Source of the DNA: an uncultured bacterium
Lineage (GTDB): Bacteria > Patescibacteriota > Minisyncoccia > SW-4-49-11
Assembly: GCA_937864235.1 (NCBI GenBank)
Contig: CALMJI010000006.1
Location: 113 to 64,112 of the forward strand
Length of the DNA: 64,000 nt
Direction of reading: 5' to 3'
This document shows, piece after piece, positions 3,132-32,357 of the stretch. The notes under the pieces are model-generated. The model searched no databases, had not been told where the DNA came from, and saw only the letters and a program-made list of their open reading frames with translations. The translations under genes and the position numbers were made by a program. Within the stretch, counting starts at the first letter, position 1. Each line of letters begins with the position of its first letter.

Positions 3132-3163
3132 ATTACCGTCTAAGATGAATTAATTATCTCTGT

Positions 3164-3598: not shown

Positions 3599-3612
3599 AT
3601 TATATAAATTTA

Positions 3613-3621
3613 TGGTATAAT
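3613..3621 (+). promoter_or_regulatory. Extended -10 TGGTATAAT for ORF 3654
   Basis: Motif lies 32 nt upstream of the ATG at 3654. Confidence 0.45.
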
Positions 3622-3653
3622 TATATATATAAATAATTCAATAATTCTAATTT

Positions 3654-3914: not shown

Positions 3915-3944
3915 GTCATTCTATATAAATTTATTTTAGAGTAG

Positions 3945-4190
3945 ATGGGTGTGGGCATTCGTAGGGGCGCCCTTTCAGTCGCCCGATTGTCATCCTTTGG
4001 ACTAAAATTCCCCTCTTGAGGGGTGGCAGGTTTCCTGACGGGGTGGAGTGTTTTTAAACTTGAACTTCTGTCCTCCTCCGCCCCTGTGGGGCACCTCCCC
4101 CAAGGGAGGACAAAATACAATGCTCCTACCTGCCTTAGGTAGGCAAATGGAGACATAAAGCAGAGCCCTCCCCTTATTGCATTTTGACCC
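3945..4190. repeat. GC-rich mosaic hairpin repeat element, copy 2. Modules: cgtaggggcgccctttcagtcgcc, gacggggtggagtgttttt, cccccaagggaggacaaaatac, cctacctgccttaggtagg.
   Basis: Shares modules with copies 1, 4, 5, 8 and 11. It is made of several adjacent hairpins. Confidence 0.7.
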
Positions 4191-4230
4191 TACTTGGCAT
4201 ATAATATGAAAATTATATAAATATTATATT

Positions 4231-4797
4231 ATGCTTTCAATTTCAGATATTAAAAAAGGTAAAATTATCGTAGTGGATGATAGTCCATTTTTAGTTTTAT
4301 TTAGTCAATTATCCAAAAAAGGCCGAGCAGGGTCAGTACTGACGGTCAAGATGAAAAATCTCATCACCAACAATACTCAGGAGCGAAATTTCAAACAATC
4401 AGATATGTTCCCTGAGGCGGATATTGCGGAAGCCTATGCTGAGTATCTATACAGTGACGGGGAGCAATACCATTTTATGGATGAGAGAACTTTTGAGCAA
4501 TATGCTTTTGACCTTGAGACCTTAGGTGAGAATACAGTTGGCTATTTGCAAGAGGGAGCTAAAGTCAAAATTGTCACTTATAATGGGGAGCCGATTACTA
4601 TAAATTTACCACCTAAAGTGGTCTTAGAAGTGACTGAGGCCGCCCCTACTATCAAAGGTAATACCGTCGATGCAGCGATGAAAACTGTAAAAGTTGAGAC
4701 TGGAATTGAAGTTAAAGTCCCTATGTTTATTAATCAGGGTGATAAAATCCGTATCAATACTGAGACTGGTATTTATGAGGAAAAAGTGACAAATTAG
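4231..4797 (+). CDS. efp: Elongation factor P
   Basis: N-terminal KOW-like motif SKKGRAGSVLTVKMKNLITN (the EF-P loop carrying the modified Lys), 188 aa with three-domain length. Its TAG stop overlaps the polA stop (TTAG shared between convergent genes). Confidence 0.9.
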   Translation: MLSISDIKKGKIIVVDDSPFLVLFSQLSKKGRAGSVLTVKMKNLITNNTQERNFKQSDMFPEADIAEAYAEYLYSDGEQYHFMDERTFEQYAFDLETLGENTVGYLQEGAKVKIVTYNGEPITINLPPKVVLEVTEAAPTIKGNTVDAAMKTVKVETGIEVKVPMFINQGDKIRINTETGIYEEKVTN

Positions 4798-7379: not shown

Positions 7380-7387
7380 ACTTTTTC

Positions 7388-7396
7388 ATTATAGCA
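7388..7396 (-). promoter_or_regulatory. Extended -10 (TGCTATAAT on minus) only 8 nt from the polA ATG, implying a leaderless polA mRNA
   Basis: The reverse complement reads tatgctataatgaaaaagtATG, with 8 nt between TATAAT and the start codon. Confidence 0.5.
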
Positions 7397-7412
7397 TATT
7401 TTGGGAGAAATA

Positions 7413-7441
7413 TAGACAAAATTCTTAAAATATGATATAAG
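7413..7441 (+). promoter_or_regulatory. Sigma70-like promoter (-35 TAGACA, 17-nt spacer, -10 TATAAG with upstream TGA) for ORF 7468. This is copy 1 of a duplicated ~46-bp promoter element.
   Basis: The 46 bp 7411-7456 and 9107-9153 are about 93% identical (atagacaaaatt[c/a]ttaaaatatgatataaggttattgt[c/t]ctata). Confidence 0.5.
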
Positions 7442-7467
7442 GTTATTGTCCTATACGGAGAACTTCC

Positions 7468-7854
7468 GTGAAAAACCCTTTCAACATTTTCTGCCTAATA
7501 ATCGCTTCAACATTAATTGGTGGCACTATATATGGAATTACAGAAATATTCAAGGAAGAAAAAACATACCTTCCAGTTGAATATGACCGCTTCATATACT
7601 TCCCATGGCATGCAGGGAAAGGATTGACACCTGACCCCACCAAAAAAGAAGCTTTTTTTACTGGCTCCAAAGAGAAATTTTTGGAGGATTGTAGTCGAAT
7701 ATGTACTTTAAGCCATCAAAATTATATCCCTGCAGGGACAACAAAGCCGGTTTACATTCAAAATCTCTATGAGCTTTTGAATGTAAACCCCTACAATCTA
7801 AAAATAACCCTTGATGGGTACTATATATACAATCCATTACCCCCAACCCATTGA
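7468..7854 (+). CDS. Hypothetical protein of 128 aa with an N-terminal signal/TM segment (GTG start per the ORF track)
   Basis: Hydrophobic N-terminus FNIFCLIIASTLIGGTIYGI. It is bracketed by a recognisable promoter and an intrinsic terminator. Confidence 0.45.
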   Translation: MKNPFNIFCLIIASTLIGGTIYGITEIFKEEKTYLPVEYDRFIYFPWHAGKGLTPDPTKKEAFFTGSKEKFLEDCSRICTLSHQNYIPAGTTKPVYIQNLYELLNVNPYNLKITLDGYYIYNPLPPTH

Positions 7855-7874
7855 CCACAGCCCCCATATCTCCA

Positions 7875-7906
7875 GACTCTGTATCACTGCAGAGTCTTTT
7901 CTTTAC
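7875..7906 (+). terminator. Rho-independent terminator (gactctg-tatcactg-cagagtc followed by TTTTCTTT), copy 1
   Basis: 7-bp GC-containing stem, 8-nt loop, T-run. It is near-identical to the copy at 9286-9318 and is followed by the shared tail ttactcaaaaatac. Confidence 0.6.
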
Positions 7907-7942
7907 TCAAAAATACTCTCAGAAATTTAATTTTATATATAC

Positions 7943-8929
7943 TTACTTTTTCTTAAATTTACTTTCTAGTTGATTTATAGTATCTAGATAAGATTGTTCC
8001 ACTGGGCTGAGGGTTTTTTGCTGATATTTTTTATATTCATCTTGAGCTTTTTGAATTGCTTCTTGATTACTAATTTTACCTGAATTTTGCAAGATTTCTT
8101 CCCCTGTAGCCAACAAAATACTATCTAAATGGTCTGCCCAATCTTGCATCTTCATTGGGACTTGTCTTTCTGCTTGTCTTTCAGCAAAGTCTAGATATCC
8201 TGAGACTATTTGACCCAATGCTCTTAATTCTTTTTCATCTAGATAATTTTTAGCTATTGAGATATCTTGTAATTGTGGTTTATTACCAGTAAAGGTAGTA
8301 AGTCCCATAAATTCTTTTTCAGCATCAGCTCGATTATAAATCACTTCAGCTGCAGTTTGTTTATGTACTGCATAATGTATTTTATTCTGGACTTTTTTGA
8401 AAAATTCAATTGAAGTTTTATTATTAGCATCATAATCTATACTTGTTGCATAGATATCTAATATCTGTCTATAAAAAACTTTCTCACTAGCTCGAATATC
8501 TCGTATACGGGTTAGCAATTCTTTCCAATAATTACCTCCGCCTAAATTTTTGAGCCTCTCATCATCCATCGTGAAGCCTTTGAGTATATATTCTTTTAAC
8601 CTTTGAGTTGCCCAAATTCTAAATTGAGTGGCTATTTTACTATTAACTCTATATCCTACAGCGATAATCATATCTAGATTATAATAACCTGTATTATACT
8701 TTTTACCGTCTCTAGCAGTTATCCGGAAATTCCGGAATACTTGATTTTTACTTAATTCCTGAGTTTTATACATATTTTGTATATGTTCACTAATAGTTCT
8801 GACATCAACTTCAAAAAGTTCTGCCATTAATTTTTGAGATAACCAAATCGTCTCATCCTCTATAAAAACATTCAATTTTACCGCTCCATTGGAATCTGTA
8901 TATAATATAAAATTGTTTTGCTCAGTCAT
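7943..8929 (-). CDS. rhuM: RhuM-family (virulence-protein RhuM-like) protein
   Basis: 328 aa. Conserved central region ...KIHYAVHKQTAAEVIYNRADAEKEFMGLTTF... matches the Virulence_RhuM family, which is often found on genomic islands. Confidence 0.7.
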   Translation of the reverse strand: MTEQNNFILYTDSNGAVKLNVFIEDETIWLSQKLMAELFEVDVRTISEHIQNMYKTQELSKNQVFRNFRITARDGKKYNTGYYNLDMIIAVGYRVNSKIATQFRIWATQRLKEYILKGFTMDDERLKNLGGGNYWKELLTRIRDIRASEKVFYRQILDIYATSIDYDANNKTSIEFFKKVQNKIHYAVHKQTAAEVIYNRADAEKEFMGLTTFTGNKPQLQDISIAKNYLDEKELRALGQIVSGYLDFAERQAERQVPMKMQDWADHLDSILLATGEEILQNSGKISNQEAIQKAQDEYKKYQQKTLSPVEQSYLDTINQLESKFKKK

Positions 8930-8952
8930 GTTTCTGATTATTATATATTTTT

Positions 8953-8961
8953 ATTATAGCA
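8953..8961 (-). promoter_or_regulatory. Extended -10 (TGCTATAAT on minus) for rhuM, 23 nt upstream of the ATG
   Basis: The reverse complement reads atatgctataataaaaatatataataatcagaaacATG. Confidence 0.45.
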
Positions 8962-8982
8962 TATTTTAGGAAAAATATGGAC

Positions 8983-9105
8983 TTTCGTAGCGGAGGCTTT
9001 AAGTCCCTCCATTTTATGTAGAGTCGGCGACCCCGCCGACATAGATTTTCGTAGAGGAGACCTTTCAGTTGCCCGTCCAGTGATATACTCAATTTTAGTT
9101 ATTTA
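8983..9105. repeat. GC-rich mosaic hairpin repeat element, copy 3, inserted within the duplicated promoter element and flanked by 8-bp direct repeats atatggac / atatagac
   Basis: Copy 1 of the promoter region (7401-7420) is continuous (gagaaatatagacaaaatt). In copy 2 the same sequence is interrupted after atatggac by 123 bp of GC-rich hairpin modules (tttcgtagcggaggctttaagtccctcc, gtcggcgaccccgccgac, ttcgtagaggagacctttcagttgcc) and resumes at atatagacaaaatt. Confidence 0.65.
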
Positions 9106-9108
9106 ATA

Positions 9109-9137
9109 TAGACAAAATTATTAAAATATGATATAAG
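9109..9137 (+). promoter_or_regulatory. Sigma70-like promoter, copy 2 (-35 TAGACA, 17-nt spacer, -10 TATAAG)
   Basis: Duplicate of the 7413-7441 element. Confidence 0.5.
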
Positions 9138-9162
9138 GTTATTGTTCTATATATGCTAGACC

Positions 9163-9276
9163 ATGACCATGTTTACTAGAAAGTTTGGAAAGTTTATACG
9201 ATATTGCGGTAATAAACCCCTTGCCCTAGGGGGGCCAATTATTGCTTTGTACGCATTGTATAATACAATATTTTGA
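9163..9276 (+). CDS. Hypothetical 37-aa peptide (MTMFTRKFGKFIRYCGNKPLALGGPIIALYALYNTIF), speculative
   Basis: ATG-to-TGA ORF positioned exactly between promoter copy 2 and terminator copy 2. It has a hydrophobic C-terminal half and is below the ORF-track cutoff. Confidence 0.25.
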   Translation: MTMFTRKFGKFIRYCGNKPLALGGPIIALYALYNTIF

Positions 9277-9285
9277 ATTTCTATC

Positions 9286-9318
9286 GACTCTGCATCACTG
9301 CAGAGTCTTTTATTTACT
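9286..9318 (+). terminator. Rho-independent terminator (gactctg-catcactg-cagagtc followed by TTTTATTT), copy 2
   Basis: Near-identical to 7875-7906. Confidence 0.6.
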
Positions 9319-9349
9319 CAAAAATACCCTTCCCCAATCAAACAATATA

Positions 9350-9450
9350 ACGGGTGACTGAGGGGTCGACCCTACGAGAGGGGCAACGAATCCACCCCCG
9401 CCTTTCAGGCACCCCCCTCCGAAGGGGGACAAATTAACTCCCCCATCCTT
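9350..9450. repeat. GC-rich mosaic hairpin repeat element, copy 4. Modules: gggtcgaccc, cccctccgaagggggacaaatta.
   Basis: Contains the palindromes ggggtcgacccc and cctccgaaggggg. It shares the ...aagg(g/a)ggacaa... module with 4100, 30326, 52122 and 62140. Confidence 0.65.
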
Positions 9451-9468
9451 GAAAATAAGCTAATTTTA

Positions 9469-9477
9469 TGTTATAAT
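9469..9477 (+). promoter_or_regulatory. Extended -10 TGTTATAAT for yebC
   Basis: Motif lies 27 nt upstream of the ATG at 9505. Confidence 0.45.
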
Positions 9478-9504
9478 TATTACTAATAAAGTAATTATAA
9501 AATT

Positions 9505-10038
9505 ATGGCTGGGCATAATAAATTCTCAAAAATCAAGCATAAAAAAGCTGCTACAGATAAGTTGAAGGCTCAGAATTTTTCTAAGGTGGTCAAGATGATT
9601 CAAATTGCAGCCCGTAAAGGTTCTATTGATCCTGCTATGAATCCCGAGTTAAGATTAGCTTTAGAGAAGGCTAAAGAGGTCAATATGCCTAAAGATAATA
9701 TTAATCGTATTTTGGAAAAAGCCTCTAATACCAGTGGGCAAGTGATTATGTATGAGGGTTTTGGACCTGAGGGGGTTGGTTTGCTCATCAAGACATATAC
9801 TGACAATCCAAATCGAACTGTAGCTGATTTGAGGCATATGTTATCCAAAAATGGAGGTACTCTAGGGGCTAGTGGTTCTGTAATTTGGATGTTTGAAGAG
9901 ATTACTAGAGAACAAGAATATAAAGTCAATATTCCGAACGAGATTACTGAAGAGGCTCAAGAAAAATTAGAGAATTTAGTAGAAATTCTAGAGGAATTGG
10001 ATGATGTAGAAGAAATCTGGACTAGTGCTACTATCTAA
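9505..10038 (+). CDS. yebC: YebC/PmpR-family probable transcriptional regulatory protein (short form, 177 aa)
   Basis: N-terminus MAGHNKFSKIKHKKAATDKLKAQNFSKV...NPELRLALEKAK...MYEGFGPEGV matches the YebC/TACO1 family. It is followed directly by ruvC, the canonical yebC-ruvC linkage. Confidence 0.85.
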   Translation: MAGHNKFSKIKHKKAATDKLKAQNFSKVVKMIQIAARKGSIDPAMNPELRLALEKAKEVNMPKDNINRILEKASNTSGQVIMYEGFGPEGVGLLIKTYTDNPNRTVADLRHMLSKNGGTLGASGSVIWMFEEITREQEYKVNIPNEITEEAQEKLENLVEILEELDDVEEIWTSATI

Positions 10039-18283: not shown

Positions 18284-18353
18284 TACCCTCTCATTATACC
18301 ACACTCCCCCTTACCCTTCCAAAAAGCCGGTTTTGAGGAGGTGGAGGTCTTTG
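18284..18353 (-). promoter_or_regulatory. Promoter element (-35 TTGGAA, -10 TGGTATAAT on minus) upstream of csaA. This is copy A of a duplicated ~70-bp segment that also carries a remnant of the sufD 3' end (…HLLKTGFLEG*).
   Basis: Roughly 88% identical over about 70 bp to 21867-21934. Its reverse complement encodes YKDLHLLKTGFLEG-stop, matching the real sufD C-terminus HLLKNGFLEG-stop. Confidence 0.6.
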
Positions 18354-18408
18354 TACTTACACATACAAAAAATCTCTAATAGAATCCTTTATCAATTCTT
18401 TGATTTAT

Positions 18409-19476
18409 TTATTCACATTTAACATAGTGTAAATATTCTATTACTGAGCTTGCTTTATGATTTCTATTATCAGATTTGTCAGCCTTAAATCTATTATACT
18501 TTTTTTTGAAAACTCCATATTCACCTCTTTTTGACATAATTGTCCTTACCTCCTCCTCTGTCATTAAACCCTCATTATTATAACTTAAAAATATATACTT
18601 TACATTTGCTTTTTGTATAATATTTTCAAAAGATTGTAAAACTTCTTTTTTTTGTGAAAATTTTGACTTCTGATTTGAATAGTCTCTAAGACCAGTTTTG
18701 CCCTTGATTTTGGGATTATCATACTTAGCAATAGTTTCTAGTAGATGATAATTTGGAGCATATTGTCTTTGATTGTAAGGAGGATCAAGATACAAAACAT
18801 CTCCCTTGACTGTCGAGACTAATTCTTCAATATCTTCATTAAAAACACTATGTTCTTTGTCATTAAGTATAAAATTTGCTGGTTGCATTACAAAATCTTT
18901 TTGAGCTGATTTTTTTAGTTGTTTTAGAAATGCTCCATAAACTGATGCTGTATTTGCCACTTTATCTATATTTTCAATCAGAGTTGTAAGTAAAAAATAA
19001 TATTCATTATCATTGATTTTACTTTCTTCTTTCCAATTTTCAATTTTTTTTCTTATTGTATCAACTTTTTTACCATTTTTATCAGAAAAGTATTGTCTTT
19101 GATTTTTTTTACTCTTTGTACCCCCAAGACAATAATTATTGTATATGAAACCTTCTGTCAGCTCTAAATTATCTAAAAATTTGCATATAAAACTTGCTCT
19201 TTCTTTATAGCTATAAGATTTTAATTCAGATAACTCATCCTCCAATCCTAAAAATTTTAAAATTTTGTGATTTTCAATGTAGTTTTTATTTAATACAAAG
19301 CTATAATATTGCAAATCATTAGCTATAATTTTATGTCCTTTGCTCTTAAAATGCTGTCCTACAACTCCAGTTCCTGCAAATAAATCTAAAAAAATAAAAT
19401 CCCTTTTACCAACTACTTTGTAAATTGATTGTTCTAAAAATTCTAAAAGAGATTTTTTGGAGCCTATATAGTTCAT
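18409..19476 (-). CDS. Dam-class (D12) N6-adenine DNA methyltransferase
   Basis: N-terminal NYIGSKKSLL, AdoMet motif DLFAGTG, catalytic YLDPPY (motif IV); 355 aa. Confidence 0.85.
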   Translation of the reverse strand: MNYIGSKKSLLEFLEQSIYKVVGKRDFIFLDLFAGTGVVGQHFKSKGHKIIANDLQYYSFVLNKNYIENHKILKFLGLEDELSELKSYSYKERASFICKFLDNLELTEGFIYNNYCLGGTKSKKNQRQYFSDKNGKKVDTIRKKIENWKEESKINDNEYYFLLTTLIENIDKVANTASVYGAFLKQLKKSAQKDFVMQPANFILNDKEHSVFNEDIEELVSTVKGDVLYLDPPYNQRQYAPNYHLLETIAKYDNPKIKGKTGLRDYSNQKSKFSQKKEVLQSFENIIQKANVKYIFLSYNNEGLMTEEEVRTIMSKRGEYGVFKKKYNRFKADKSDNRNHKASSVIEYLHYVKCE

Positions 19477-19491
19477 ATTCTGTGATAGACC

Positions 19492-20274
19492 CTAAATTTT
19501 ATTATATTTGGCAAAGTAATCATCAATTTCATTTCTAAGCTCAATTCCTACTCTTTCAAAACAATCAAGCAAATCATTATAAGCTCCTTCTCCCCCTATA
19601 AAATCCCAAAACTCATTAGCTACTTTTAATTCTTGCTCTAGGTCTAGCATCCCTCTAATTGTCCAGCGATTATATGGCTCAGGATCATAAGGATTATATG
19701 GGATAGCAATCAGTGTATGTATTTTTGCATTTGGATTATTAGCTAAAGTTATGGCTGCCCATTCTAAGAGTGTTCGCTTAAATTCCTTGAACCCTCCCGC
19801 ATTTGGTTTTGCGGTTTTAATATCAAATAGAAATAATTCTCCTGTATAACTCTCTAATAAAATATCTACTTTTGTTGGTTTAACTGTTCTAAACTCACCT
19901 TTTTGAGCTATTTTTTGAATAATTTCTATTTCTTGTTTTTTATTTGGTGATGACTTAGCAGTTATTAGATCATCCATTATTTGCTGAATTTTAATTTGAG
20001 CTTGTGAGCTAATTTTATGCCCAGCTATTGCCTGAGATTCCGCTCTCTTGAATCTACTTTTAGCTAAAGATAGAGCTACTGGTTCAAAAATACTAGTTCC
20101 AAAGTTAGTATTTAGTGAATGAATAAAAGAAAACAAAGCCATCCTATCCTTACCTAATAATCTTGAGTGAAAAGGCATTGCTTTTGGCTCTGGTTTGTAA
20201 TTTTTAAATTTATTTCTAAGGGCTGTTCTTAAAACATTTTCTATATCTGTAATTTGTTGCTGATTTAGACTCAT
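19492..20274 (-). CDS. Putative type II restriction endonuclease (PD-(D/E)xK-like), the middle gene of an M-R-M cassette
   Basis: 260 aa. Candidate PD-(D/E)xK core ...ESYTGELFLFDIKTAKP.... It is co-oriented with and overlaps the upstream methyltransferase by 4 nt. No stronger family assignment is possible by eye. Confidence 0.45.
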   Translation of the reverse strand: MSLNQQQITDIENVLRTALRNKFKNYKPEPKAMPFHSRLLGKDRMALFSFIHSLNTNFGTSIFEPVALSLAKSRFKRAESQAIAGHKISSQAQIKIQQIMDDLITAKSSPNKKQEIEIIQKIAQKGEFRTVKPTKVDILLESYTGELFLFDIKTAKPNAGGFKEFKRTLLEWAAITLANNPNAKIHTLIAIPYNPYDPEPYNRWTIRGMLDLEQELKVANEFWDFIGGEGAYNDLLDCFERVGIELRNEIDDYFAKYNKI

Positions 20275-21866
20275 ATTTTTGACTTTAGATGAAAAATAAT
20301 TTCTGCATATGGATTTTTGTCCCTTTCTGTACGATTTAATACTGGTCTTTTGTACTGATTGACGATTTTCATCCCAGCTTTATCAGCTATTTCGGGATAT
20401 AAATTCCATTTATCATTAGCTACCAAGAAAATATCAAAATCTTTAGCGAGATACTTTTTGGCATTCAATAAAACTTTTGAGATTCCCTCTACATAAGAAT
20501 TTTTGGCTTCTTTCCCTTGTCCTTTATATAATGGTCCTATTTCTAACTCATCTTTTCTCTCAAAACCAAATAGATCATAGGCATAAGCATGTTGTTCATG
20601 ATAATCTATTTGTCCTACATAAGGTGGAGATGAAAAAATACCCTTAATTTTCTGCTTCTCAAAAATTGTAGCAAGATTTCTATTTCTAATTTTAATTTCT
20701 TTATATATATCTACTGTTCTAGAATCTCCTGTAATAGTTGTCCAGTATGATTTTCTCTTTAACTGATGAAATTCTTTAATCCTTGCAATGGTATCTTTAG
20801 CATAGCGATTAAACCAATATTTTATAGAAAATATTGGTTTACAAATTTTTTTATGCTTCCAACAATAATAAGTTGTAATTTGGGGTTCTTTCAATGTAGC
20901 CAAATCTGAGTGTGTGGTAGCTCTACAAGATCGAATTGTCCGACTTAATATCACTGATAGCACTCTTTTATTTTTACCATCTTGAACCTTTTTAATCTGT
21001 TCAAAAGCAAAGTCTATTTCTTTTCTAACATTTTGAATATACCATTTATCTAAAAATATTTTATTGTTTTTTTGCTTTAATTCGATTCCATATTTATCTA
21101 CTAATTTCTCATAGATTGCTAAAAATTCTTTCTCTTTTTTGCTAGCATAATTATTTTCATCAATTTCTTTTTTATAGACTTTTCTTTTGAAATTTGGTGA
21201 TGGAAAATTTTTATTATTAAATTTAGATAATTCTATATATAGCTCTTTTTCAAATTCTTGAATTTTTGCATCTACTTCAAATTTAGTAATAGCTAAGTTT
21301 ATATTTTTAATATCTTGCATCAAATCTTCCAGATCATAATCTAATAACTTTATATCTGTTATCATAGTATTAAATCTAGAAATATCTACTCCTACAGAAT
21401 GAATGCCCAATTCATTTGCTTGAACTAAGGTAGTACCAGAGCCAGAAAATGGGTCTAATATAATATCTCCCTGCTTGAAAAACACCTCTTGTTTGAAATT
21501 ATCTATATGTTCATCTATAAAATACTCCACCAGTTGAGGTATAAATTTACCTTTATATGGATGTAATCTATGCACATGCTTGGTAGTATCTTTTTCTCTC
21601 AAATTATCAAATGAGAGACTCCAGTTCAAATCATCTCCTAGCTTTTTCTTCCATTCAATTTCTCTCTTACCATTAAAAGATTGATAATAATTCTTAAGAT
21701 CATTGATATGAACTTGAGTGCTTCCATTGTCTCCATATTTTTTGACCTTCCCGTACTGAATTAAATAAGAAATATTAGTCTCACTAACTACTCTACCCAA
21801 CAATAAACTAGCCCATTCACAAGCTTCTTTTATAGTCAATAATGATTTTGATTCTATATTACTCAT
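20271..21866 (-). CDS. DNA methyltransferase (N6-adenine or N4-cytosine, amino-methyltransferase family)
   Basis: AdoMet-binding motif I ILDPFSGSGTT and catalytic motif IV SPPY, about 270 aa apart (alpha-like order with an intervening target-recognition region); 531 aa. Confidence 0.8.
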   Translation of the reverse strand: MSNIESKSLLTIKEACEWASLLLGRVVSETNISYLIQYGKVKKYGDNGSTQVHINDLKNYYQSFNGKREIEWKKKLGDDLNWSLSFDNLREKDTTKHVHRLHPYKGKFIPQLVEYFIDEHIDNFKQEVFFKQGDIILDPFSGSGTTLVQANELGIHSVGVDISRFNTMITDIKLLDYDLEDLMQDIKNINLAITKFEVDAKIQEFEKELYIELSKFNNKNFPSPNFKRKVYKKEIDENNYASKKEKEFLAIYEKLVDKYGIELKQKNNKIFLDKWYIQNVRKEIDFAFEQIKKVQDGKNKRVLSVILSRTIRSCRATTHSDLATLKEPQITTYYCWKHKKICKPIFSIKYWFNRYAKDTIARIKEFHQLKRKSYWTTITGDSRTVDIYKEIKIRNRNLATIFEKQKIKGIFSSPPYVGQIDYHEQHAYAYDLFGFERKDELEIGPLYKGQGKEAKNSYVEGISKVLLNAKKYLAKDFDIFLVANDKWNLYPEIADKAGMKIVNQYKRPVLNRTERDKNPYAEIIFHLKSKI

Positions 21867-24013: not shown

Positions 24014-24655
24014 ATGGATATCTTCTTTGATTACCTTATCCGAAATGATGTACCCAGAGAAACAATAGACATCTTGTTGATGTTTCCTATTATGGCTGGT
24101 TTCATCGTAGCAGCCAGACAAATCGTGGGAGTTAAGGCTTTTGGTATATATACACCACTGATTATCACATTTGCTCTGACTGAAATTGGGTTCAAATACG
24201 GAGTTAGTATTTTTATAGTCTCCCTTCTGGTAGCCTCAATAGTACGATTCCTACTTAGAAAAATTAGAATTTTGTATTTACCAAAAATGGCTTTGATACT
24301 ATCTATTACAGCCTTGTCTATGTTCTTTAGTCTAATCTGGGGCATATTCTCAGATAGCACAATGTTTGTACAAGCCTCAATTTACCAGATTTTAATTATT
24401 ATAACCTTAGTAGAGAAATTCATCAATGCTCAGATGGAAAAAGGTTATCGTACGGCGGTAATTCTATCTCTAGAAACTTTAATCCTAGCCTCATTTGGAA
24501 ACTTAATTATGACAACTACCAGACTTCGAGACTTGGTATTCTATAATCCTTGGGTTATTCTAATTGTCTTTGCTGGAATTATATTCTTAGGACGCTATGA
24601 AGGACTTAGACTTTCTGAATATATACGCTTTAGAAAAATTATTAGCAATCAATAA
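24014..24655 (+). CDS. 7-TM integral membrane protein (7TM module of the type that partners alpha-L-glutamate-ligase-like ATP-grasp enzymes)
   Basis: 213 aa with seven predicted hydrophobic helices. It lies 4 nt upstream of, and co-oriented with, an ATP-grasp ligase, which is the arrangement described for 7TM / inactive-transglutaminase partners of RimK-like ligases. Confidence 0.5.
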   Translation: MDIFFDYLIRNDVPRETIDILLMFPIMAGFIVAARQIVGVKAFGIYTPLIITFALTEIGFKYGVSIFIVSLLVASIVRFLLRKIRILYLPKMALILSITALSMFFSLIWGIFSDSTMFVQASIYQILIIITLVEKFINAQMEKGYRTAVILSLETLILASFGNLIMTTTRLRDLVFYNPWVILIVFAGIIFLGRYEGLRLSEYIRFRKIISNQ

Positions 24656-24658
24656 GCT

Positions 24659-26080
24659 ATGAATTGGCTAGAAGCATTCGTATTTAGTCAAAAAATACTC
24701 GGGATGAATGCCCGCAATCTTTCTTATATCAAACCCTACAATTACCGCAAATGGGTAAAGCTAGTAGACAATAAAATCAAGTTCAAAAAAGCCCTACAAC
24801 AAAATAATATCCCGACCCCAAAACTCTTAGCTTCTATCCGCTCCTATGAAAAGCTTAATGATTTTGATTATAATAAATTACCAAAAAGCTTTGTTCTAAA
24901 ACCAACATCTGGCTTTGGAGGAGAAGGAATTGTAGTGATTTTTGGAGAACACAAAAAAAGAACAGCCGACGGCGAGAGACAATGGGTCAAAACTAAAGGA
25001 GTCAAACTCAGTGAGACTATGATTCACAACCATATTAGTAATATTCTAGATGGAACATATTCTCGAACCAATAGCCCGGATGTAGCCTTCTTTGAAGAGA
25101 GAATCAAAATCAACAAATCATTCAAGCATTTAGCCTACAAAGGTATTCCTGATATTAGAGTTATCGTATTCAATCGCATTCCCGTAATGGCAATGATGAG
25201 AATCCCGACCAAAGAATCCGACGGCAAAGCTAATCTGCATCTTGGAGGAATTGGAGTCGGAATAGATATGGCTACCGGAGTTACTACCAATGCCATTATG
25301 CGAGAGAAATTTATCGATACTATCCCAGGGACAAAAATTAATTTAGCTGGGATTAGAATCCCATATTGGAATACAATTTTGGATATTGCAATTCGCACTG
25401 CTGATGTGACAAATCTAGGGCTCACTGGAGTAGATATAGCCATAGACCGAGATGCTGGACCGGTAGTATTAGAGGCCAATGCACGACCGGGACTAGCCAT
25501 CCAAATTGCCAATCTCGCCCCCCTAAAAGAAAGACTCCAAAAAGTCAAAGGTCTCAAAGTCAAAACTATCAAAAGAGCAATCCGACTAGCAAAAGATCTC
25601 TTCGGAGGAGAAATTGAAGAGGAAATTGAGGAAATCACCGGACGACAAGTGATAGGTTTGATTGAAGAAATCACCCTGTTTGGTAAAGACAGTCAAAAAC
25701 AAACTATTCTAGCTAAGGTAGATACAGGAGCAGGCAAAACATCTATTGATGAAAATTTAGCTATTGAATTAGGTTATGCTGGAGTGTTAGAGCATATGAA
25801 AAAGTTTAAAATAAAGCCAGTGCTAACCTTAGATGAAATTAATGAGCTATCTAAAAATAAAGTCTGGCAAAAAATAGAAGAGCACCCCGATATAGTGGGA
25901 GTCTCTAAAGTAAAAAGTAGTCACGGCTACTCTTATAGACCGATAATCTATATCAAACTTAAAGTTAGAGATGATATTTTTGGAACAAAAGCCAATATTA
26001 TAACTAGACAAGATTTGGAGTACCAAATGATATTAGGAGAAAACTCCCTCAAAAGATTTATCATAGATCCAAGGAAGTAA
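24659..26080 (+). CDS. ATP-grasp ligase (alpha-L-glutamate ligase-related) fused to a C-terminal retropepsin-like aspartyl-protease domain (DTGA)
   Basis: The N-terminal ~330 aa has the ATP-grasp fold (KPTSGFGGEGIVV, LHLGGIGVGIDMATG, VLEANARPGL). The C-terminal ~130 aa has KVDTGAGKTSIDENLA, resembling the RimK-associated retropepsin-like protease family (PF05618 type) that is usually a separate gene. Confidence 0.65.
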   Translation: MNWLEAFVFSQKILGMNARNLSYIKPYNYRKWVKLVDNKIKFKKALQQNNIPTPKLLASIRSYEKLNDFDYNKLPKSFVLKPTSGFGGEGIVVIFGEHKKRTADGERQWVKTKGVKLSETMIHNHISNILDGTYSRTNSPDVAFFEERIKINKSFKHLAYKGIPDIRVIVFNRIPVMAMMRIPTKESDGKANLHLGGIGVGIDMATGVTTNAIMREKFIDTIPGTKINLAGIRIPYWNTILDIAIRTADVTNLGLTGVDIAIDRDAGPVVLEANARPGLAIQIANLAPLKERLQKVKGLKVKTIKRAIRLAKDLFGGEIEEEIEEITGRQVIGLIEEITLFGKDSQKQTILAKVDTGAGKTSIDENLAIELGYAGVLEHMKKFKIKPVLTLDEINELSKNKVWQKIEEHPDIVGVSKVKSSHGYSYRPIIYIKLKVRDDIFGTKANIITRQDLEYQMILGENSLKRFIIDPRK

Positions 26081-26088
26081 AATATCAC

Positions 26089-26943
26089 ATGAAGACAATA
26101 CTATTTACAACACGTAATGAACCAAATACAAAAACAATTAGTAAGTTGATCGAAGCTGCCAAAAGATTAGACCTCAATATAGAAATAATTCATACTAAAT
26201 CTAGTATAAATAAACTCCATAAAAATAATAAATTAAAACATATAGACTTTGCAATACATAGAGACGTTGATTGTGCTCCATCCCAAAACTTTTATGTAAA
26301 TCAACTTCCATCATCAACGAGGCAACTAAATAAAGATTTTTTATTGAAATTTAATAAATATGACAAAGCTATACAATATTCATATTTATCCCAAACTAAT
26401 CACAGTATCCCTTTAATCCCTACCATATGGTCATTTGATACTTTAAGCTATGAATATATATGTAAATATTTTCAAGATAACAAGTTTTTAGTTAAACCTA
26501 GCTGGGGATCATTTGGAAATGGAATTCAAATCATAGACTCTCAGTCAAAGTTAGATGAATATTATAAAACAAATCGTCCTTACAATATTATATTTCAACA
26601 GTATATTCCGATTGAATGGGATATTAGGGTTTTAATAATAGGAAATAAAGTATTGGGAGGAATGAAAAGGAATAAGCCTCATGAGGATTCCATTGTAACC
26701 AATATATCCAAAGGTGGTATTGGGGAAAAATTTGTATTGTCACCTGAAGTAGAAAAAATAGCTTTGGATGTATCTAGAACGTTATCATTAGAATACGCTG
26801 GGGTAGATATTTTATTTGATTCTAAACATAATCCTTATGTGATTGAAGTGAATTCAAGCCCACAATTCTATGGTTTCAATAAGACCTTTAATATTCAAGT
26901 TGAAGATTTATTACTAGATTACTTGATATCATCTAAAGGTTAA
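26089..26943 (+). CDS. RimK-family ATP-grasp ligase (alpha-L-glutamate ligase-like), paralog 2
   Basis: EWDIRVLIIGNKVLGGMKRNK...ISKGG...AGVDILFD...YVIEVNSSP matches RimK central and C-terminal motifs. Confidence 0.75.
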   Translation: MKTILFTTRNEPNTKTISKLIEAAKRLDLNIEIIHTKSSINKLHKNNKLKHIDFAIHRDVDCAPSQNFYVNQLPSSTRQLNKDFLLKFNKYDKAIQYSYLSQTNHSIPLIPTIWSFDTLSYEYICKYFQDNKFLVKPSWGSFGNGIQIIDSQSKLDEYYKTNRPYNIIFQQYIPIEWDIRVLIIGNKVLGGMKRNKPHEDSIVTNISKGGIGEKFVLSPEVEKIALDVSRTLSLEYAGVDILFDSKHNPYVIEVNSSPQFYGFNKTFNIQVEDLLLDYLISSKG

Positions 26944-26947
26944 ATTT

Positions 26948-27808
26948 ATGAAAAAAATATTATTCATTAATTTTCGAACATCATTCCAAGTAGAGTTTAA
27001 AAAAAACATAGAATCTCATGGATATAATTTCTATCATATTAAATTTACTGAGCTATCTTTACTAAATAATCAGATACTTGTGAATGACTCAAAACTTGAA
27101 GAGTTTAGCTATGTATTTGTAGGACTAACTGAGAAACACAAACATATTAGCCCTATTTTGAAGCAATATCTAATTAATAAAAATATACCTTTTATATTTT
27201 ATGGACATAAACCTGATCATATTGACTCTAAATCATTTGAAATATATAATTTGAGTAGTAATAATATTCCAATTATACCTTCCTTAATTTCAAGAGATAA
27301 AAATACAATAGCTGACTTTATAAACCAATATACTAATCCTTTTATAACAAAACCTGTAAATGGTAGAAAGGGTAGAGAAATACTTCAACATTCCTCTTTA
27401 GAATCTACAATGGATGCCGTAAATAAATCTGAGACTCCTCTAATTATTCAGCCTATGATCCTTAATAACGGTGATTATAGAGTTTGGATATTAAAGGGGC
27501 GGGTCATAGGGGTAATCAAGAGAAGTCCTAATGCAGAGGGTGAGTTTAGGTCTAATATTTCTCTTGGTGGAACTGCTCAAGTAGCTAGCCTCCCTGATGA
27601 TGTATTAGATATGGCTATCAAGTCAGCTCAAATTCTAGATTTGGATATGGCTGGAGTAGATATTATTCAAGATATTAATACCAAGAAGTATTATATTATG
27701 GAAGTTAATGCAGCCCCCCAATTCACTGGCTTTATGGCAACAACGGGTATTAATTTGTTTGAAGTTATCACAAAATATATAATACAAGAAATTGAAGTTA
27801 AGAAATAA
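26948..27808 (+). CDS. RimK-family ATP-grasp ligase (alpha-L-glutamate ligase-like), paralog 3
   Basis: DYRVWILKGRVIGVIKRSPNAEGEFRSNISLGGTAQ...AGVDIIQD...YIMEVNAAPQF. Confidence 0.75.
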   Translation: MKKILFINFRTSFQVEFKKNIESHGYNFYHIKFTELSLLNNQILVNDSKLEEFSYVFVGLTEKHKHISPILKQYLINKNIPFIFYGHKPDHIDSKSFEIYNLSSNNIPIIPSLISRDKNTIADFINQYTNPFITKPVNGRKGREILQHSSLESTMDAVNKSETPLIIQPMILNNGDYRVWILKGRVIGVIKRSPNAEGEFRSNISLGGTAQVASLPDDVLDMAIKSAQILDLDMAGVDIIQDINTKKYYIMEVNAAPQFTGFMATTGINLFEVITKYIIQEIEVKK

Positions 27809-27828
27809 TTATAATCTTACATAAAATT

Positions 27829-28839
27829 ATGTCAATAGAAACCGATACTAGACCAATAGAACATAATGAAAGACAGCCAATCTTTTATCCTGAACGCCCC
27901 TCTTACTCAGCTCAAAGGCTTCTTCATGAAATATCAAAATATCAATATGGAGAAAAACAACAAGAACCATTGACCCCTGAAGAGTATCTTGAATCAATAA
28001 ATTTTGAAAATCCTTTTGTAGATGAGTTAGCTAAGCTATATTCTATAAGTTATGATAAAAAAACACTATACCCTGAATATTTTGATACCGTTATGGGACA
28101 AAAGGAGTTACAAGAAGTTATTTTATCACACTATTTAGCCAATAAAGGCCTGCCTGAAACTCAAATTATATTGGATAGATTATATAAAAATTCTAATCTG
28201 GAAAATAATAGTTCCCCGATTGACATTAGAGCAAGTATTTATATTTTAAGAAAATTAGACCCTGAATCCTTAGCTATATTAGGTGAGAAAAGTCTAAAAC
28301 ATCATACTAAGAAAATGTTGGAGACTCTATCTAAACATATTACAGAAGATGGGGCATTAAATATAGATGGTTTGGATAATCCAGAAAAAGTAATGTTTAT
28401 TGACCGTCCTGAAGAATTAGAGAAAAAAATTATAGGATTAAGAGAATTAAAGTTAAAATTAGAACAAGAAAGACTTAAGCTATCCCAGATAGAAGTAGGT
28501 ACCCCCGATAATAGTTCCACATTAATTCATTTCAAACTATCTAGAATCAGAGAGCTTATCAAAAAAATTAATGTTTTATTAGCTGAAACTTTAGAAGATA
28601 GAGCAATTCTGGATGCTGAAGCAGATTTGCCATCTCACAAACCAAAGTATAAATTAGATAAGTTTAGATATGGGGTTGGTCAGATGAGTTCTGAAGGTAA
28701 TTATGACCAAATAGACAGCAGATTATTACAACAAGCTGATGAAATAGCTGAAGAACATATTAAGTTAAATCAAGAAAAAGCATCTATCCTAGCAGAACAA
28801 GGATTAGACGTAAAAAAAAATGGAAGATGCAAGTATTGA
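27829..28839 (+). CDS. Hypothetical acidic coiled-coil protein. It is possibly the N-terminal part of the downstream QEGLA/HExxH protein, separated from it only by an A9 tract.
   Basis: It ends ...GLDVKKNGRCKY* and overlaps the next ORF at the 9-A run at 28812-28820. With 8 As the two ORFs fuse in frame (...GLDVKKMEDASIEPE...). Confidence 0.45.
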   Translation: MSIETDTRPIEHNERQPIFYPERPSYSAQRLLHEISKYQYGEKQQEPLTPEEYLESINFENPFVDELAKLYSISYDKKTLYPEYFDTVMGQKELQEVILSHYLANKGLPETQIILDRLYKNSNLENNSSPIDIRASIYILRKLDPESLAILGEKSLKHHTKKMLETLSKHITEDGALNIDGLDNPEKVMFIDRPEELEKKIIGLRELKLKLEQERLKLSQIEVGTPDNSSTLIHFKLSRIRELIKKINVLLAETLEDRAILDAEADLPSHKPKYKLDKFRYGVGQMSSEGNYDQIDSRLLQQADEIAEEHIKLNQEKASILAEQGLDVKKNGRCKY

Positions 28840-29761
28840 ACCTGAGGAAATAAAAATATACTTGGATAGGATTTTATCAGAATATGGATTGTTAAGCGAT
28901 TATCCTGCTGATCAAGAACAAGTAGATAATAATATTAAACCTACTGATAATAAGTGGAGATGTTATATAAAGCCTAATCAGTCCGTATTTGAAATTGATA
29001 GCAAAAGTAAAACTTTATTTATCCCAATTAAGAAGAGGTCTATTATAGATGTATTAACAAAAGGTGCTACTCATGAAATAATTCATATCCTTCAAAGAGA
29101 AAATACTGCTGAAATTGGACTACCCTTATACACTAACCCTCAACAAATGGGAGGGGATAGATCTGATCTATTTCAAGAGGGTGGAGCTATGTACTATCAA
29201 GATCAAGCTTCTCAAGAATTATTTGGATTTGCCAGTCCACCAGGGCCACATTATCTTAGAGCTATGGCCGTCAAACAAGCTGGAGGAGACTATCTAGCTT
29301 GTGTTAAGGCATATTATGAAAACACTATATCAGTCAACCCTAAAAAAGGAAAGTTGGCACCAAAAACCGCTATTAGTAGTGCTAGAAGATTGTTCCGTAA
29401 CTCAATAAACTTCAATAACAACGACCGCTCTATTCCTTCTACTAAAGATACTGTTTATCTAGAGCAAAAAGCGGTAGTAGAAGAAATTCTCAAATATTCT
29501 GAACTTCAAAATCTTATCTTAGTATCTGGAATTAACCTTGAGACGGCAAAAGAAATGATTCATTTTGGGTTATTAGATTTGAGTAAGCTAAGAACCCCAG
29601 ATTTATCTTATGTACAAAAAATTTGGGAGGAGGAAAAGCATAAATACACCCTAGACCCCCCAAACACAGAACCCGTCTCATCCCCCAATTCAGAGGAGAC
29701 TTCAGAACAAACTCCCCCATCCCCCACTACCCAAACAATAGACAAAAAATTAAAATTGTGA
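28820..29761 (+). CDS. DUF1704-like QEGLA-motif protein with an HExxH zincin motif (putative metallopeptidase partner of ATP-grasp ligases)
   Basis: GATHEIIHIL (HExxH) is followed about 35 aa later by DLFQEGGAMYYQD (a QEGLA-like motif whose Glu could be the third zinc ligand). Its gene neighbourhood contains alpha-L-glutamate-ligase-related ATP-grasp and 7TM genes, as described for this family. Confidence 0.55.
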   Translation: MEDASIEPEEIKIYLDRILSEYGLLSDYPADQEQVDNNIKPTDNKWRCYIKPNQSVFEIDSKSKTLFIPIKKRSIIDVLTKGATHEIIHILQRENTAEIGLPLYTNPQQMGGDRSDLFQEGGAMYYQDQASQELFGFASPPGPHYLRAMAVKQAGGDYLACVKAYYENTISVNPKKGKLAPKTAISSARRLFRNSINFNNNDRSIPSTKDTVYLEQKAVVEEILKYSELQNLILVSGINLETAKEMIHFGLLDLSKLRTPDLSYVQKIWEEEKHKYTLDPPNTEPVSSPNSEETSEQTPPSPTTQTIDKKLKL

Positions 29762-29800: not shown

Positions 29801-29876
29801 GCCGAAATAGCTCAGCTGGTAGAGCAACCGCCTTGTAAGCGGTAGGTCGGGGGTTCAAGTCCTCTTTTCGGCTCCA
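29801..29876 (+). tRNA. tRNA-Thr (anticodon TGT), CCA encoded
   Basis: Hand-folded cloverleaf. The 7-bp acceptor stem GCCGAAA pairs with TTTCGGC, the D arm is GCTCAGCTGGTAGAGC, the anticodon loop is CTTGTAA and the T loop is TTCAAGT. Confidence 0.9.
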
Positions 29877-29888
29877 TAGATATTTCTA

Positions 29889-29897
29889 TGGTATAAT
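29889..29897 (+). promoter_or_regulatory. Extended -10 TGGTATAAT for tRNA-Tyr
   Basis: Lies 14 nt upstream of the tRNA 5' end. Confidence 0.4.
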
Positions 29898-29911
29898 GTA
29901 TGTACATTTTT

Positions 29912-29999
29912 GGGCAGATGGCGGAGCAGTCAAACGCATCGGTCTGTAAAACCGACGCCTTTTCAGGCTACGTAGGTGCGAGTCCTACTCTGCCCACCA
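29912..29999 (+). tRNA. tRNA-Tyr (anticodon GTA), long variable arm, CCA encoded. The T-loop has G instead of the near-universal U at position 55.
   Basis: Acceptor GGGCAGA pairs with TCTGCCC; the anticodon stem TCGGT pairs with ACCGA around loop CTGTAAA; the variable arm is GCC-ttttca-GGC; the T arm is GTAGG-TGCGAGT-CCTAC. Confidence 0.75.
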
Positions 30000-30069
30000 A
30001 ACATTTACCAAAATAGTTGCAAAATATTTTATTTTGTGTATACTATGTTGGTATTTATCTTATTATTAA

Positions 30070-30142
30070 GGGTGCATAGCTCAGTTGGTAGAGCAGAGGC
30101 CTTTTAAGCCTTTGGTCGGTGGTTCGAGCCCACCTGCACCCA
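30070..30142 (+). tRNA. tRNA-Lys (anticodon TTT), no encoded CCA
   Basis: Acceptor GGGTGCA pairs with TGCACCC; the anticodon loop is CTTTTAA; the T arm is GGTGG-TTCGAGC-CCACC. Confidence 0.9.
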
Positions 30143-30242
30143 CATTTATAAAAAATTCATAATCTTACTCTATAATTACTTATACATCATATACTTTTGC
30201 ATTAGATTACTGAAGAAAAATTATAAAAAAGAGTGCTTAATT

Positions 30243-30908: not shown

Positions 30909-32357
30909 ATGAATAGAACCATACAAAAAATCTTCGCTTGGACACTTATATTCTTATTCCTTATTATAGCTCCTGCTATTGTACTATATAGTATGGGATA
31001 TCGTCTCAGTAAAGATAATACCGATGGCTCTATTCTAACTAGTACAGGAGGAATTAGGATTAACACTAGAATTCCTTATGAAATTGCAATTAATGATAAA
31101 TTTGAATCCAAAAGTCCACTTCTCAAAGTAGGGCTAGCCCCGCAAGATTTGGATGTAGTTTTGTCTCTATCTGGTTATCAGTCATGGGCAAAAAAAATAT
31201 CTATAAAACCATCTTTAGTACAATTAATTAGCGAAGTTACTCTTTTCCCAGAGAAGCCTAATTTAGAAAAATTCACCGATTTATCCCTAGCTCGTGATAT
31301 CAGTCGTGTGCCTGATGCTTCATCTCTGCTTTATACTTCTTATACACCTCAAGAATCTGGGCTTTGGTTATTGAACCTAGATACCAAACTTCGTAAAAGG
31401 ATTACCGATAGCGTAGCTCTTGGAGGAACTGATAATCAGGACTATTCAGACTTTGTTTGGGATGCTGCTGGGACTACTTTAGCTTTTAAAACCTCTATTA
31501 ATAATGTTTTCCAATATTTTGTAGTTATCAATGTAGATACTAATCCTATAATCTTTAATTTTACCAGCCTTATTCCTATTGCTGATGTCATTGCAAATCC
31601 TGTTAAAGTTGTAAGTTTAGATACAGATAGATTATTCTTCACCCAAGCCGGGGCATTATATGAAATCAAACAACAGTTTAGCAATCGCTCTGAACCACTT
31701 GTAGGAGATATGGATCAGTATAGCTTTATTAGTAATACTATTTATTATACCTCTAGCAAAGATATATCCAAGAATTTAATTCGTATTTATAATATCGACA
31801 CTAAACAAAATACTGTCATTAATACTCCAGATATGAGTATAAGTAAATTATTTGTAAGTCCAAGCCAGGGGCATATTATACTCTTAGATGATAACCAACA
31901 AGCTTGGCTCAAATCTCTTGGCCTAAAGACCCCAGAATTCAACCAAATTTCTGAACTTAAAATTAAAGATATACAATTTAGCCTAGATTCCAAAAAAGCT
32001 CTCCTAAAGGGCGAAAATACCATTTCTAAGCTATATCTAGATACAATAGAGGGTTATAAATCTAGACTTGAAGGAGATTTTGATACTTTATATACCTCTA
32101 ATGAGACTATTACCAAGTCAGAATTTTGGGAGCCAAATTCTGAATATATAATATTTGTAGAGAATAATATTCTTAAAGCAGTAGAATCAGATACTCGTGG
32201 TAATATTAATAGCTATACTCTATTAGATAATGCCAAAAACTTTATTTCTATTAGAATTGGAAATGATGCTAGGACTTTAATTAGCAATCCGGAAGATGAA
32301 ATTCAATATTTCCAATTCCCTATTCGAACCCCTTTGATTAATTTTAATAATAATTAA
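30909..32357 (+). CDS. Hypothetical membrane-anchored protein (482 aa) with an N-terminal TM segment
   Basis: N-terminal WTLIFLFLIIAPAIVLYSMG followed by a large, probably extracytoplasmic, domain with no recognised motifs. Confidence 0.45.
   Translation: MNRTIQKIFAWTLIFLFLIIAPAIVLYSMGYRLSKDNTDGSILTSTGGIRINTRIPYEIAINDKFESKSPLLKVGLAPQDLDVVLSLSGYQSWAKKISIKPSLVQLISEVTLFPEKPNLEKFTDLSLARDISRVPDASSLLYTSYTPQESGLWLLNLDTKLRKRITDSVALGGTDNQDYSDFVWDAAGTTLAFKTSINNVFQYFVVINVDTNPIIFNFTSLIPIADVIANPVKVVSLDTDRLFFTQAGALYEIKQQFSNRSEPLVGDMDQYSFISNTIYYTSSKDISKNLIRIYNIDTKQNTVINTPDMSISKLFVSPSQGHIILLDDNQQAWLKSLGLKTPEFNQISELKIKDIQFSLDSKKALLKGENTISKLYLDTIEGYKSRLEGDFDTLYTSNETITKSEFWEPNSEYIIFVENNILKAVESDTRGNINSYTLLDNAKNFISIRIGNDARTLISNPEDEIQYFQFPIRTPLINFNNN

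Follow-up and report, generated by a model that had tools for sequence, protein, structure and literature searches.

Split metallopeptidase related to MATCAP/DUF1704 in a conserved ATP-grasp ligase and peptidase operon of a Minisyncoccia bacterium

Gene neighbourhoods that bring together ATP-grasp enzymes, 7TM-transglutaminase proteins (7TM, seven transmembrane segments) and peptidases are said to have been noted originally in the computational description of Iyer et al. in 2009. The closest system with genetic and structural data, published in 2025, is rloABC of Pseudomonas aeruginosa, which encodes a retropepsin, a 7TM/inactive-transglutaminase protein and an ATP-grasp enzyme (PMC12239564). 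The RloA proteases are secreted and cleave runs of at least 8 glutamates, and loss of rloA1-3 leads to hypo-osmotic lethality that is suppressed by deletion of rloB or rloC, from which it follows that the protease removes a product of the ligase and the 7TM protein (PMC12239564). The authors of that work weigh free polyglutamate and glutamate-pool homeostasis, and 96% of the RloB matches they report are from Proteobacteria (PMC12239564). In a second system, RimK polyglutamylates ribosomal protein S6 (RpsF) and makes poly-alpha-glutamate while RimB removes glutamate, and a natural hybrid of the two enzymes, with RimB as its N-terminal part, is known to be active (PMC11957791). MATCAP/TMCP enzymes are gluzincins with an atypical HExxxH motif and the third ligand in an EEG motif; they remove Tyr/Glu from tubulin C-termini, acting as C-terminal tail carboxypeptidase and deglutamylase (PMC10499314). 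Low salinity, moreover, raises the expression of three Photobacterium genes by 27- to 52-fold, namely a QEGLA gene, its ATP-grasp neighbour and rimK (PMC10308900). Here we describe a locus that draws on all of these families, at positions 24014-29761 of a 64,000-nucleotide (nt) stretch of contig CALMJI010000006.1 (hereafter the window) from an uncultured Minisyncoccia bacterium. A first-pass annotation made from the sequence had treated its core trio (7TM protein, ATP-grasp enzyme, QEGLA protein) as experimentally uncharacterised, which is outdated in view of the rloABC genetics and structures (PMC12239564) and the RimB/RimK biochemistry (PMC11957791).

The locus consists of six open reading frames (ORFs) in the same orientation (Table 1). 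ORF1 to ORF5 are spaced by 3, 8, 4 and 20 nt, and ORF5 and ORF6 overlap by 20 nt. The six tightly packed ORFs and their coordinates were correctly given in the first-pass annotation, but the gene count was not, as ORF5 and ORF6 are fragments of one gene split by a frameshift and the locus has five genes. Its reading of the locus as one for peptide modification, in which a fused retropepsin-like protease and an HExxH...E gluzincin accompany three ATP-grasp ligases, holds. On balance we lean towards a membrane-associated writer/eraser system that would build and trim acidic (glutamate-type) peptide tails or polymers. Every part of the operon is under purifying selection, the ratio of nonsynonymous to synonymous substitution rates (dN/dS) being 0.02-0.36.

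Table 1. Features of the ligase and peptidase locus (window positions; aa, amino acids)
Feature	Position	Strand	Basis
ORF1, 213 aa, 7-TM membrane protein	24014..24655	+	PF14402, NF052267 part match, hydrophobic segments
ORF2 N-terminal part (aa 1-327), ATP-grasp amidoligase, 'alpha-L-glutamate ligase-like'	24659..25639	+	PF14397/TIGR02291
ORF2 C-terminal domain (aa 328-473), retropepsin-like aspartic peptidase, RimB/RloA/PF05618 type	25640..26080	+	DTGA, 2pma alignment
ORF3, 284 aa, RimK-family ATP-grasp ligase	26089..26943	+	TIGR00768, PF08443
ORF4, 286 aa, second RimK-family ATP-grasp ligase	26948..27808	+	TIGR00768, PF08443
ORF5, 336 aa, N-terminal helical domain of metallopeptidase	27829..28839	+	collinear with intact homologues
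A9 homopolymer, +1 frameshift site	28812..28820	+	A8 in intact close relatives
ORF6, 313 aa, catalytic domain, MATCAP/DUF1704-like gluzincin	28820..29761	+	HEIIH, QEGGA

The 7TM/ATP-grasp/retropepsin core of the locus probably matches rloABC, since a PF14402/RloB-family 7TM protein, an ATP-grasp ligase and a PF05618-family DTG peptidase are encoded together in both. ORF1 matched PF14402 (7TM_transglut) with an E-value of 4.3e-24 (85.8 bits against a cut-off of 25, profile positions 56-247 of 248) and carries seven hydrophobic segments, just as had been expected of the first gene. The NCBIfam model of RloB, NF052267, was matched at 5.6e-20 (71.5 bits, cut-off 900) only over model positions 312-506 of 508, which is the C-terminal 7-TM part; ORF1 is thus not a full-length RloB with the N-terminal periplasmic inactive-transglutaminase domain, and appears to correspond to the membrane part of RloB without that domain. 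Its dN/dS is 0.02-0.04. The product of ORF2 (24659-26080) was predicted beforehand to be a ligase with a retropepsin-like domain fused to its C-terminus, and the searches agree with this. Residues 1-300 match PF14397 at 3.8e-71 (240 bits, cut-off 31.4, positions 2-277 of 278), and the ligase part has a dN/dS of 0.02. Of the other profiles named in advance, TIGR02291 gave a strong match to the same residues (1.3e-84) that at 283.9 bits lies below its cut-off of 314.2, PF05618 matched the C-terminal domain at 1e-5 with 25.9 bits, just under the cut-off of 27, and PF14401 was not found for the ligases.

Other profiles also point to the RimB/RloA type for the C-terminal domain of ORF2, with 24.9 bits against the RloA3 model (1.4e-5, cut-off 210) and 16.7 bits against RimB (cut-off 200). 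A full-length phmmer alignment to PDB 2pma (E 0.0024) places AKVDTGA of ORF2 opposite AKLDTGA; the DTGA motif itself is at aa 355-358 (nt 25721-25732). The signature DTGA...SID is kept in 11 of 11 fusion proteins from lineages as distant as Parcubacteria and Bdellovibrionales, and a C-terminal hhG(R/K) motif is likewise conserved across the 11 fusion proteins compared. The peptidase domain lacks a signal peptide, and since it forms the C-terminal end of the ligase it is taken to be cytoplasmic, as opposed to the secreted RloA proteases. The window further differs from rloABC in that it adds two RimK ligases and a MATCAP-like metallopeptidase, and in that its host is a bacterium of the Candidate Phyla Radiation (CPR). 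Compared with the Rlo and Rim systems alike, it joins an Rlo-like with a RimK-like module and its metallopeptidase comes from an unclassified family.

The two RimK-type ligases proposed for ORF3 and ORF4 gave matches to both family models. TIGR00768 is matched over its full length but below its cut-off of 143.4 bits (ORF3, 2.4e-39 and 135.3 bits; ORF4, 4e-36 and 124.8 bits), and PF08443 well above its cut-off (1.6e-29 and 3.1e-30, respectively). With only 34% identity to each other by BLASTP, they must be old paralogues. Against NF007764, the equivalog model of the S6-Glu ligase, they score 60.6 and 75.6 bits, far below the cut-off of 331. Neither the amino acid that is added nor the acceptor can be read from the sequence. 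These scores bear on whether the locus is a classical RimK/RimB system, in which ORF3 and ORF4 would add glutamate to S6, the peptidases would remove it, and translation would be tuned as in Pseudomonas. The full-length RimK-family matches agree with this, as does the RimB-like retropepsin domain together with the known active RimB-RimK hybrid, and a ribosomal-protein gene cluster adjoins the locus. The window shares with RimK, RimB and RimBK (PMC11957791, PMC7343187) the pairing of a RimK-family ligase with a retropepsin-like endopeptidase, which in Rim systems removes poly-Glu and may do so here, and an active natural fusion exists there too. However, the protease precedes a true RimK in RimBK, whereas in the window it follows a ligase of the PF14397/TIGR02291 type and the RimK-like genes stand apart from it. 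The 7TM protein and the MATCAP-like peptidase are also foreign to Rim systems, there is no RimA here, and rpsF lies outside the window. In addition, the ligase cassette is swapped among close relatives (see below), which would be unexpected for a fixed housekeeping substrate. We therefore regard S6 modification as unlikely.

The last two ORFs required a revision of the gene model. ORF5 had been described as an acidic coiled-coil protein of 336 aa, a separate gene and a candidate substrate; this was rejected, as ORF5 encodes the N-terminal domain of the peptidase, which a frameshift has severed from the rest. It aligns collinearly with residues 1-330 in intact homologues of 638-641 aa, stops six codons past the frameshift and carries the family-conserved motifs YPER (27886-27900) and DKFxxG (28657-28674). 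Homologues of about 470 aa (P0002-P0004) span the C-terminal half of ORF5 and the whole of ORF6. When one A is removed from the A9 tract, a 643-aa ORF is obtained that reads ...GLDVKKMEDASIEPE... across the junction. The cluster of ORF6 at 90% identity includes intact 641-aa proteins. The two loci that encode them (L028, L029) have an A8 tract and a five-gene operon with products of 213, 475, 284, 287 and 641 aa. In ORF6 the HEIIH motif (aa 85-89, nt 29072-29086) and the QEGGA motif with the putative third zinc ligand (aa 119-123, nt 29174-29188) are invariant in close relatives. That the A9 allele is real is shown by 17 contigs, drawn from independent samples in ENA, Logan and JGI, which all carry the identical 336-aa ORF5.

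Three relatives have the peptidase gene interrupted in other ways. In place of the A9 frameshift at aa ~330 of the window, L004 has TAA instead of a Tyr codon at codon 81, L005 has a frameshift in an A8 run at aa ~203, and L007 has a hairpin-rich insertion of ~140 nt at aa ~341. An alternative genetic code for the in-frame stop of L004 was considered and rejected, the stop being TAA and the other lesions frameshifts and an insertion. The insert of L007 (4170-4300), at the domain boundary, contains two hairpins rich in GC (CCCCGCCTTAAAAGGCAGGG... and CCCCGCCCTTAAAAGGGCGGGG) and resembles either a small mobile element, of the kind of a miniature inverted-repeat transposable element, or a terminator-like one. 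In a further lineage, the protein P0010 ends out of frame at the junction of the window (...GLDVKKWKPKVLSLSK), as seen at the protein level. The poly-A tract at the junction of the peptidase domains suggests a hypermutable, possibly phase-variable site.

It is possible, though doubtful in our opinion, that the system is simply decaying here and that ORF5 and ORF6 are non-functional remnants of the metallopeptidase. The A9 frameshift, the independent lesions in L004, L005 and L007 and the out-of-frame end of P0010 at the same junction would all be expected in that case. Yet the four mapped lesions are all upstream of the catalytic domain, which remains open with a dN/dS of 0.075-0.30 (0.16-0.36 for the N-terminal part). 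The split of the window coincides with the point at which, in an AlphaFold2 model, the N-terminal helical domain is predicted to give way to the catalytic one, and ORF6 has its own ATG, the overlap with ORF5 being suited to coupled translation. (A separate AlphaFold2 model of the 474-aa P0002, built from a nine-sequence alignment, had a predicted local distance difference test score of 49 and was discarded.) Tracts of nine A can support transcriptional slippage that restores the frame, which also counts against decay, as does the stability of the A9 allele over the independent samples. Moreover, the gene is intact in the close relatives L028, L029 and L026 and in all distant lineages. The eraser in the window may thus be inactivated, may work as two pieces, or may have its frame restored in some transcripts by polymerase slippage.

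The first-pass annotation had further called this protein a DUF1704-like QEGLA-HExxH gluzincin that would be recognised by PF08014 and TIGR02421. Its motifs and its kinship are borne out, but its membership in these two families is not. No match to either profile was found for ORF5, ORF6, ten diverse intact members or the proteins P0197, P0012 and P0013, at a threshold of E<=1 for the Pfam scan of the ten members and E<=10 elsewhere, although a positive control (L009:7986-9305) was readily detected (PF08014 3.7e-14, TIGR02421 1.9e-12). At the same thresholds ORF5, ORF6 and intact members gave no Pfam or NCBIfam match beyond chance level. Sequence searches of the PDB with single sequences and two profiles returned nothing save a chance-level match of ORF5 (E 0.26), and the family profile A2 did not match the PDB MATCAP sequences. 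An exhaustive HMMER search placed the protein in a family of 364 clusters at 50% identity, most of which are intact proteins of 600-640 aa. Residues H414, E415, H418 and E449, along with G281 and Y547, are invariant among 84 diverse members. The family thus has HExx(x)H with a downstream Glu in an (E/Q)EG motif; among 149 representatives the zinc motif is HExxH in 77 and HExxxH in 60, followed by (A/S/Q)EGGA. It may be noted that this alternation inside one family amounts to an indel of one residue within the metal-binding helix.

The tie to MATCAP comes from profile comparison and from bridging sequences. Using hhalign, profile A2 was aligned with a bona fide MATCAP protein (L009) at 93.3% probability (E 2.8e-7) over 206 columns, in which HExxxH, EEGLA/EGGAM, RLFRG and YLE(Q) fall in register, and the family was found to agree with a MATCAP-like fold. 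Three proteins (L025, L045, L046) match both families by plain phmmer. In L009 the bona fide PF08014/TIGR02421 gene lies directly downstream of a member of the new family and is followed by an ATP-grasp_4 ligase, and in L019 a bona fide MATCAP/DUF1704 gene (3243-4526) is near another member. As they occur as separate genes in one neighbourhood, MATCAP and the new family are distinct paralogous families. From these comparisons we conclude that the metallopeptidase represents a family sister to MATCAP/DUF1704, in which an additional helical domain of ~320 aa precedes the catalytic part. It differs from MATCAP/TMCP (KIAA0895L; PF08014, formerly DUF1704) and from TIGR02421 in that neither profile detects it at E<=10; its members, at ~640 aa, are set apart from MATCAP and the TIGR02421 QEGLA proteins by the additional domain, and the window clade has HExxH as opposed to the HExxxH of MATCAP. 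The M32 carboxypeptidases and DUF885 helical gluzincins are more remote, with lower identity (11%), scores below those of MATCAP and no sequence-level signal. Almost all family members are from CPR bacteria, with some from predatory Bdellovibrionales, and they are missing from Pfam and NCBIfam.

The arrangement is not confined to this genome; it is a conserved operon type, and the expectation that the genes would be conserved together in related genomes is confirmed across distant lineages. For this census, genome and metagenome contigs were scanned with the HEIEGHVL subfamily, a subset that biases the result towards HExxxH members, and neighbouring genes were mapped by phmmer and Pfam. Of the 34 loci obtained, 25 were informative (including L008). 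Of these, 12 follow the order of the window, starting with the ATP-grasp::retropepsin fusion (together with the 7TM gene if the contig extends far enough), which is followed by one or two RimK-like ligases and then by the peptidase. Another 8 have a RimK-like ligase directly adjoining the peptidase with no 7TM or fusion gene, and one has MATCAP and ATP-grasp_4 beside the peptidase, so that the peptidase adjoins an ATP-grasp ligase in 21 of the 25; the other 4 have no ligase in the neighbourhood. The loci cover Paceibacterota, Moranbacteria, Microgenomates, Saccharibacteria, Peribacteria, Abawacabacteria and uncultured Bdellovibrionales. These arrangements indicate that the primary partner of the peptidase is a RimK-type ligase, and the union with the Rlo-like pair appears, from its distribution, to be ancient and recurrent. 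In a Microgenomates operon (L024:6715-7728) a DUF3541 gene (PF12060, 7e-39) lies between the fusion and the RimK-like ligase.

Close relatives of the window differ sharply along the operon. Identity is 97-98% for the 7TM gene and for the ligase core of ORF2, but falls to 50% for the ORF2 retropepsin domain when the window is compared with L004, and to 41-67% for the peptidase when it is compared with L005. Between them, the window, L004 and L028 have two RimK genes on the plus strand; L005 has one ATP-grasp_3 gene of 452 aa between the fusion and the peptidase (8044-9402, minus strand), L026 two RimK-like genes on the minus strand (7257-9947) and L007 one (1421-3134, minus strand). L026 and L007 also encode a protein of 265-266 aa that has no Pfam, NCBIfam or PADLOC match. 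Such replacement of ligases between nearly identical flanks looks like cassette exchange, and hints that the product may differ between strains. An anti-phage defence system was considered for this strain-variable cassette and rejected, as there were no PADLOC hits. A mosaic of this type is typical of variable surface or secreted-product loci, and it bears on a further alternative, namely that the locus is a small-molecule or polymer pathway in which the ligases make a free acidic peptide or polymer or decorate the cell envelope, with export or anchoring of the product left to the 7TM protein, its recycling or maturation to the peptidases, and its variation between strains to cassette exchange. 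That RimK makes free poly-alpha-Glu, that the Rlo authors consider free polyglutamate and glutamate-pool homeostasis, and that no substrate gene is present in cis are all in line with this pathway. As opposed to this, the nearest characterised relatives of the peptidases, MATCAP and RimB/RloA, act on protein tails, and the locus contains nothing transporter-like except the uncharacterised 7TM protein. Such a pathway also overlaps with our preferred reading, and the two are hard to tell apart by sequence alone. We hold it to be rather improbable, if less so than S6 modification.

The preferred writer/eraser system would be composed of two modules. The first, Rlo-like, comprises the 7-TM protein and the PF14397/TIGR02291 ligase with its C-terminal RimB/RloA-type retropepsin, and the second the two diverged RimK-family alpha-L-glutamate-type ligases and the ~640-aa zinc metallopeptidase. 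At the cytoplasmic face of the membrane the ligases would spend ATP to add glutamate or other acidic residues to the C-terminus of some protein or to a free poly-alpha-glutamate-type peptide. The retropepsin domain would then cut the acidic tail internally and the MATCAP-like enzyme would trim it from the C-terminus, such that tail length or the polymer pool may be set dynamically by ligases acting against peptidases. A role in osmotic or envelope homeostasis is possible by analogy with Rlo and with the low-salinity induction in Photobacterium. The sequences themselves show which domains are present, the frameshift, the conservation of the operon and the distant homology with MATCAP, whereas chemistry, substrate, role at the membrane and purpose in the cell we infer from the homologues.

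Several observations weigh against this system as proposed. All ligase scores are below the equivalog cut-offs for the S6-Glu ligase, MptN, CofF and LysX. In the retropepsin allele of the window, ILGEN takes the place of the IIGRK that is usual in the family, at the point where Gly-Arg is expected. Both the window and, through other lesions, three relatives have a broken metallopeptidase gene, so this clade may be losing the eraser or able to do without it. No gene for a protein with an acidic C-terminal tail is near the locus and rpsF is not in the 64-kb window, which leaves no substrate candidate; also, no extra conserved gene was found at the operon borders in distant loci, so that no substrate appears to be encoded in cis.

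As regards the setting, the locus is flanked by a divergent sufBD pair on one side, while on the other the operon is closed off by a cluster of tRNA genes at 29801-30143, for Thr(tgt), Tyr(gta) and Lys(ttt), that takes up most of the 717-nt gap 3' of it. The tRNA cluster is variably present, since L004 has only ~50 nt between the peptidase gene and RNase H. After RNase H, all relatives have a protein of 482 aa (30909-32357, plus strand, in the window) with an N-terminal transmembrane segment and a dN/dS of ~0.06-0.07, for which there was no Pfam match. Just upstream of sufBD is a restriction-modification cluster (18300-21866, minus strand) with a HinfI-like endonuclease (19492-20274, PF09520), an N6/N4 methyltransferase (20271-21866) and another D12-class methyltransferase; it is not at this position in L004, L005 and L026. 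Proteins identical to those of the window were found in metagenome-assembled genomes labelled Candidatus Parcubacteria, Minisyncoccia or Paceibacterota, and the minimal genome supposed for the host agrees with this, a Parcubacteria/Minisyncoccia genome being a reduced one.

How amino acids are reversibly added to C-termini is well understood for the tubulin of eukaryotes (TTL/TTLL versus MATCAP/CCP), and in bacteria only for S6. That bacteria with very small genomes retain a five-gene system of three ligases and two unrelated peptidases bears on this, and the physical joining of Rlo-type and RimK-type modules in many lineages suggests a shared substrate or pathway. The operon offers a compact set of soluble enzymes for finding the Rlo product. 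A sizeable protein family that is missed by current libraries is now tied to MATCAP, which improves the annotation of CPR genomes. More tentatively, and with the balance of probability against it, the ~640-aa family may be an unrecognised bacterial branch of MATCAP that forms a dedicated ligase/eraser pair with RimK-type ligases, the operon being a prokaryotic counterpart, at the membrane, of the tubulin tyrosination/glutamylation cycle. If this were true, populations could vary or switch their modification state by means of the strain-variable cassette of ligases and the hypermutable poly-A tract in the eraser gene.

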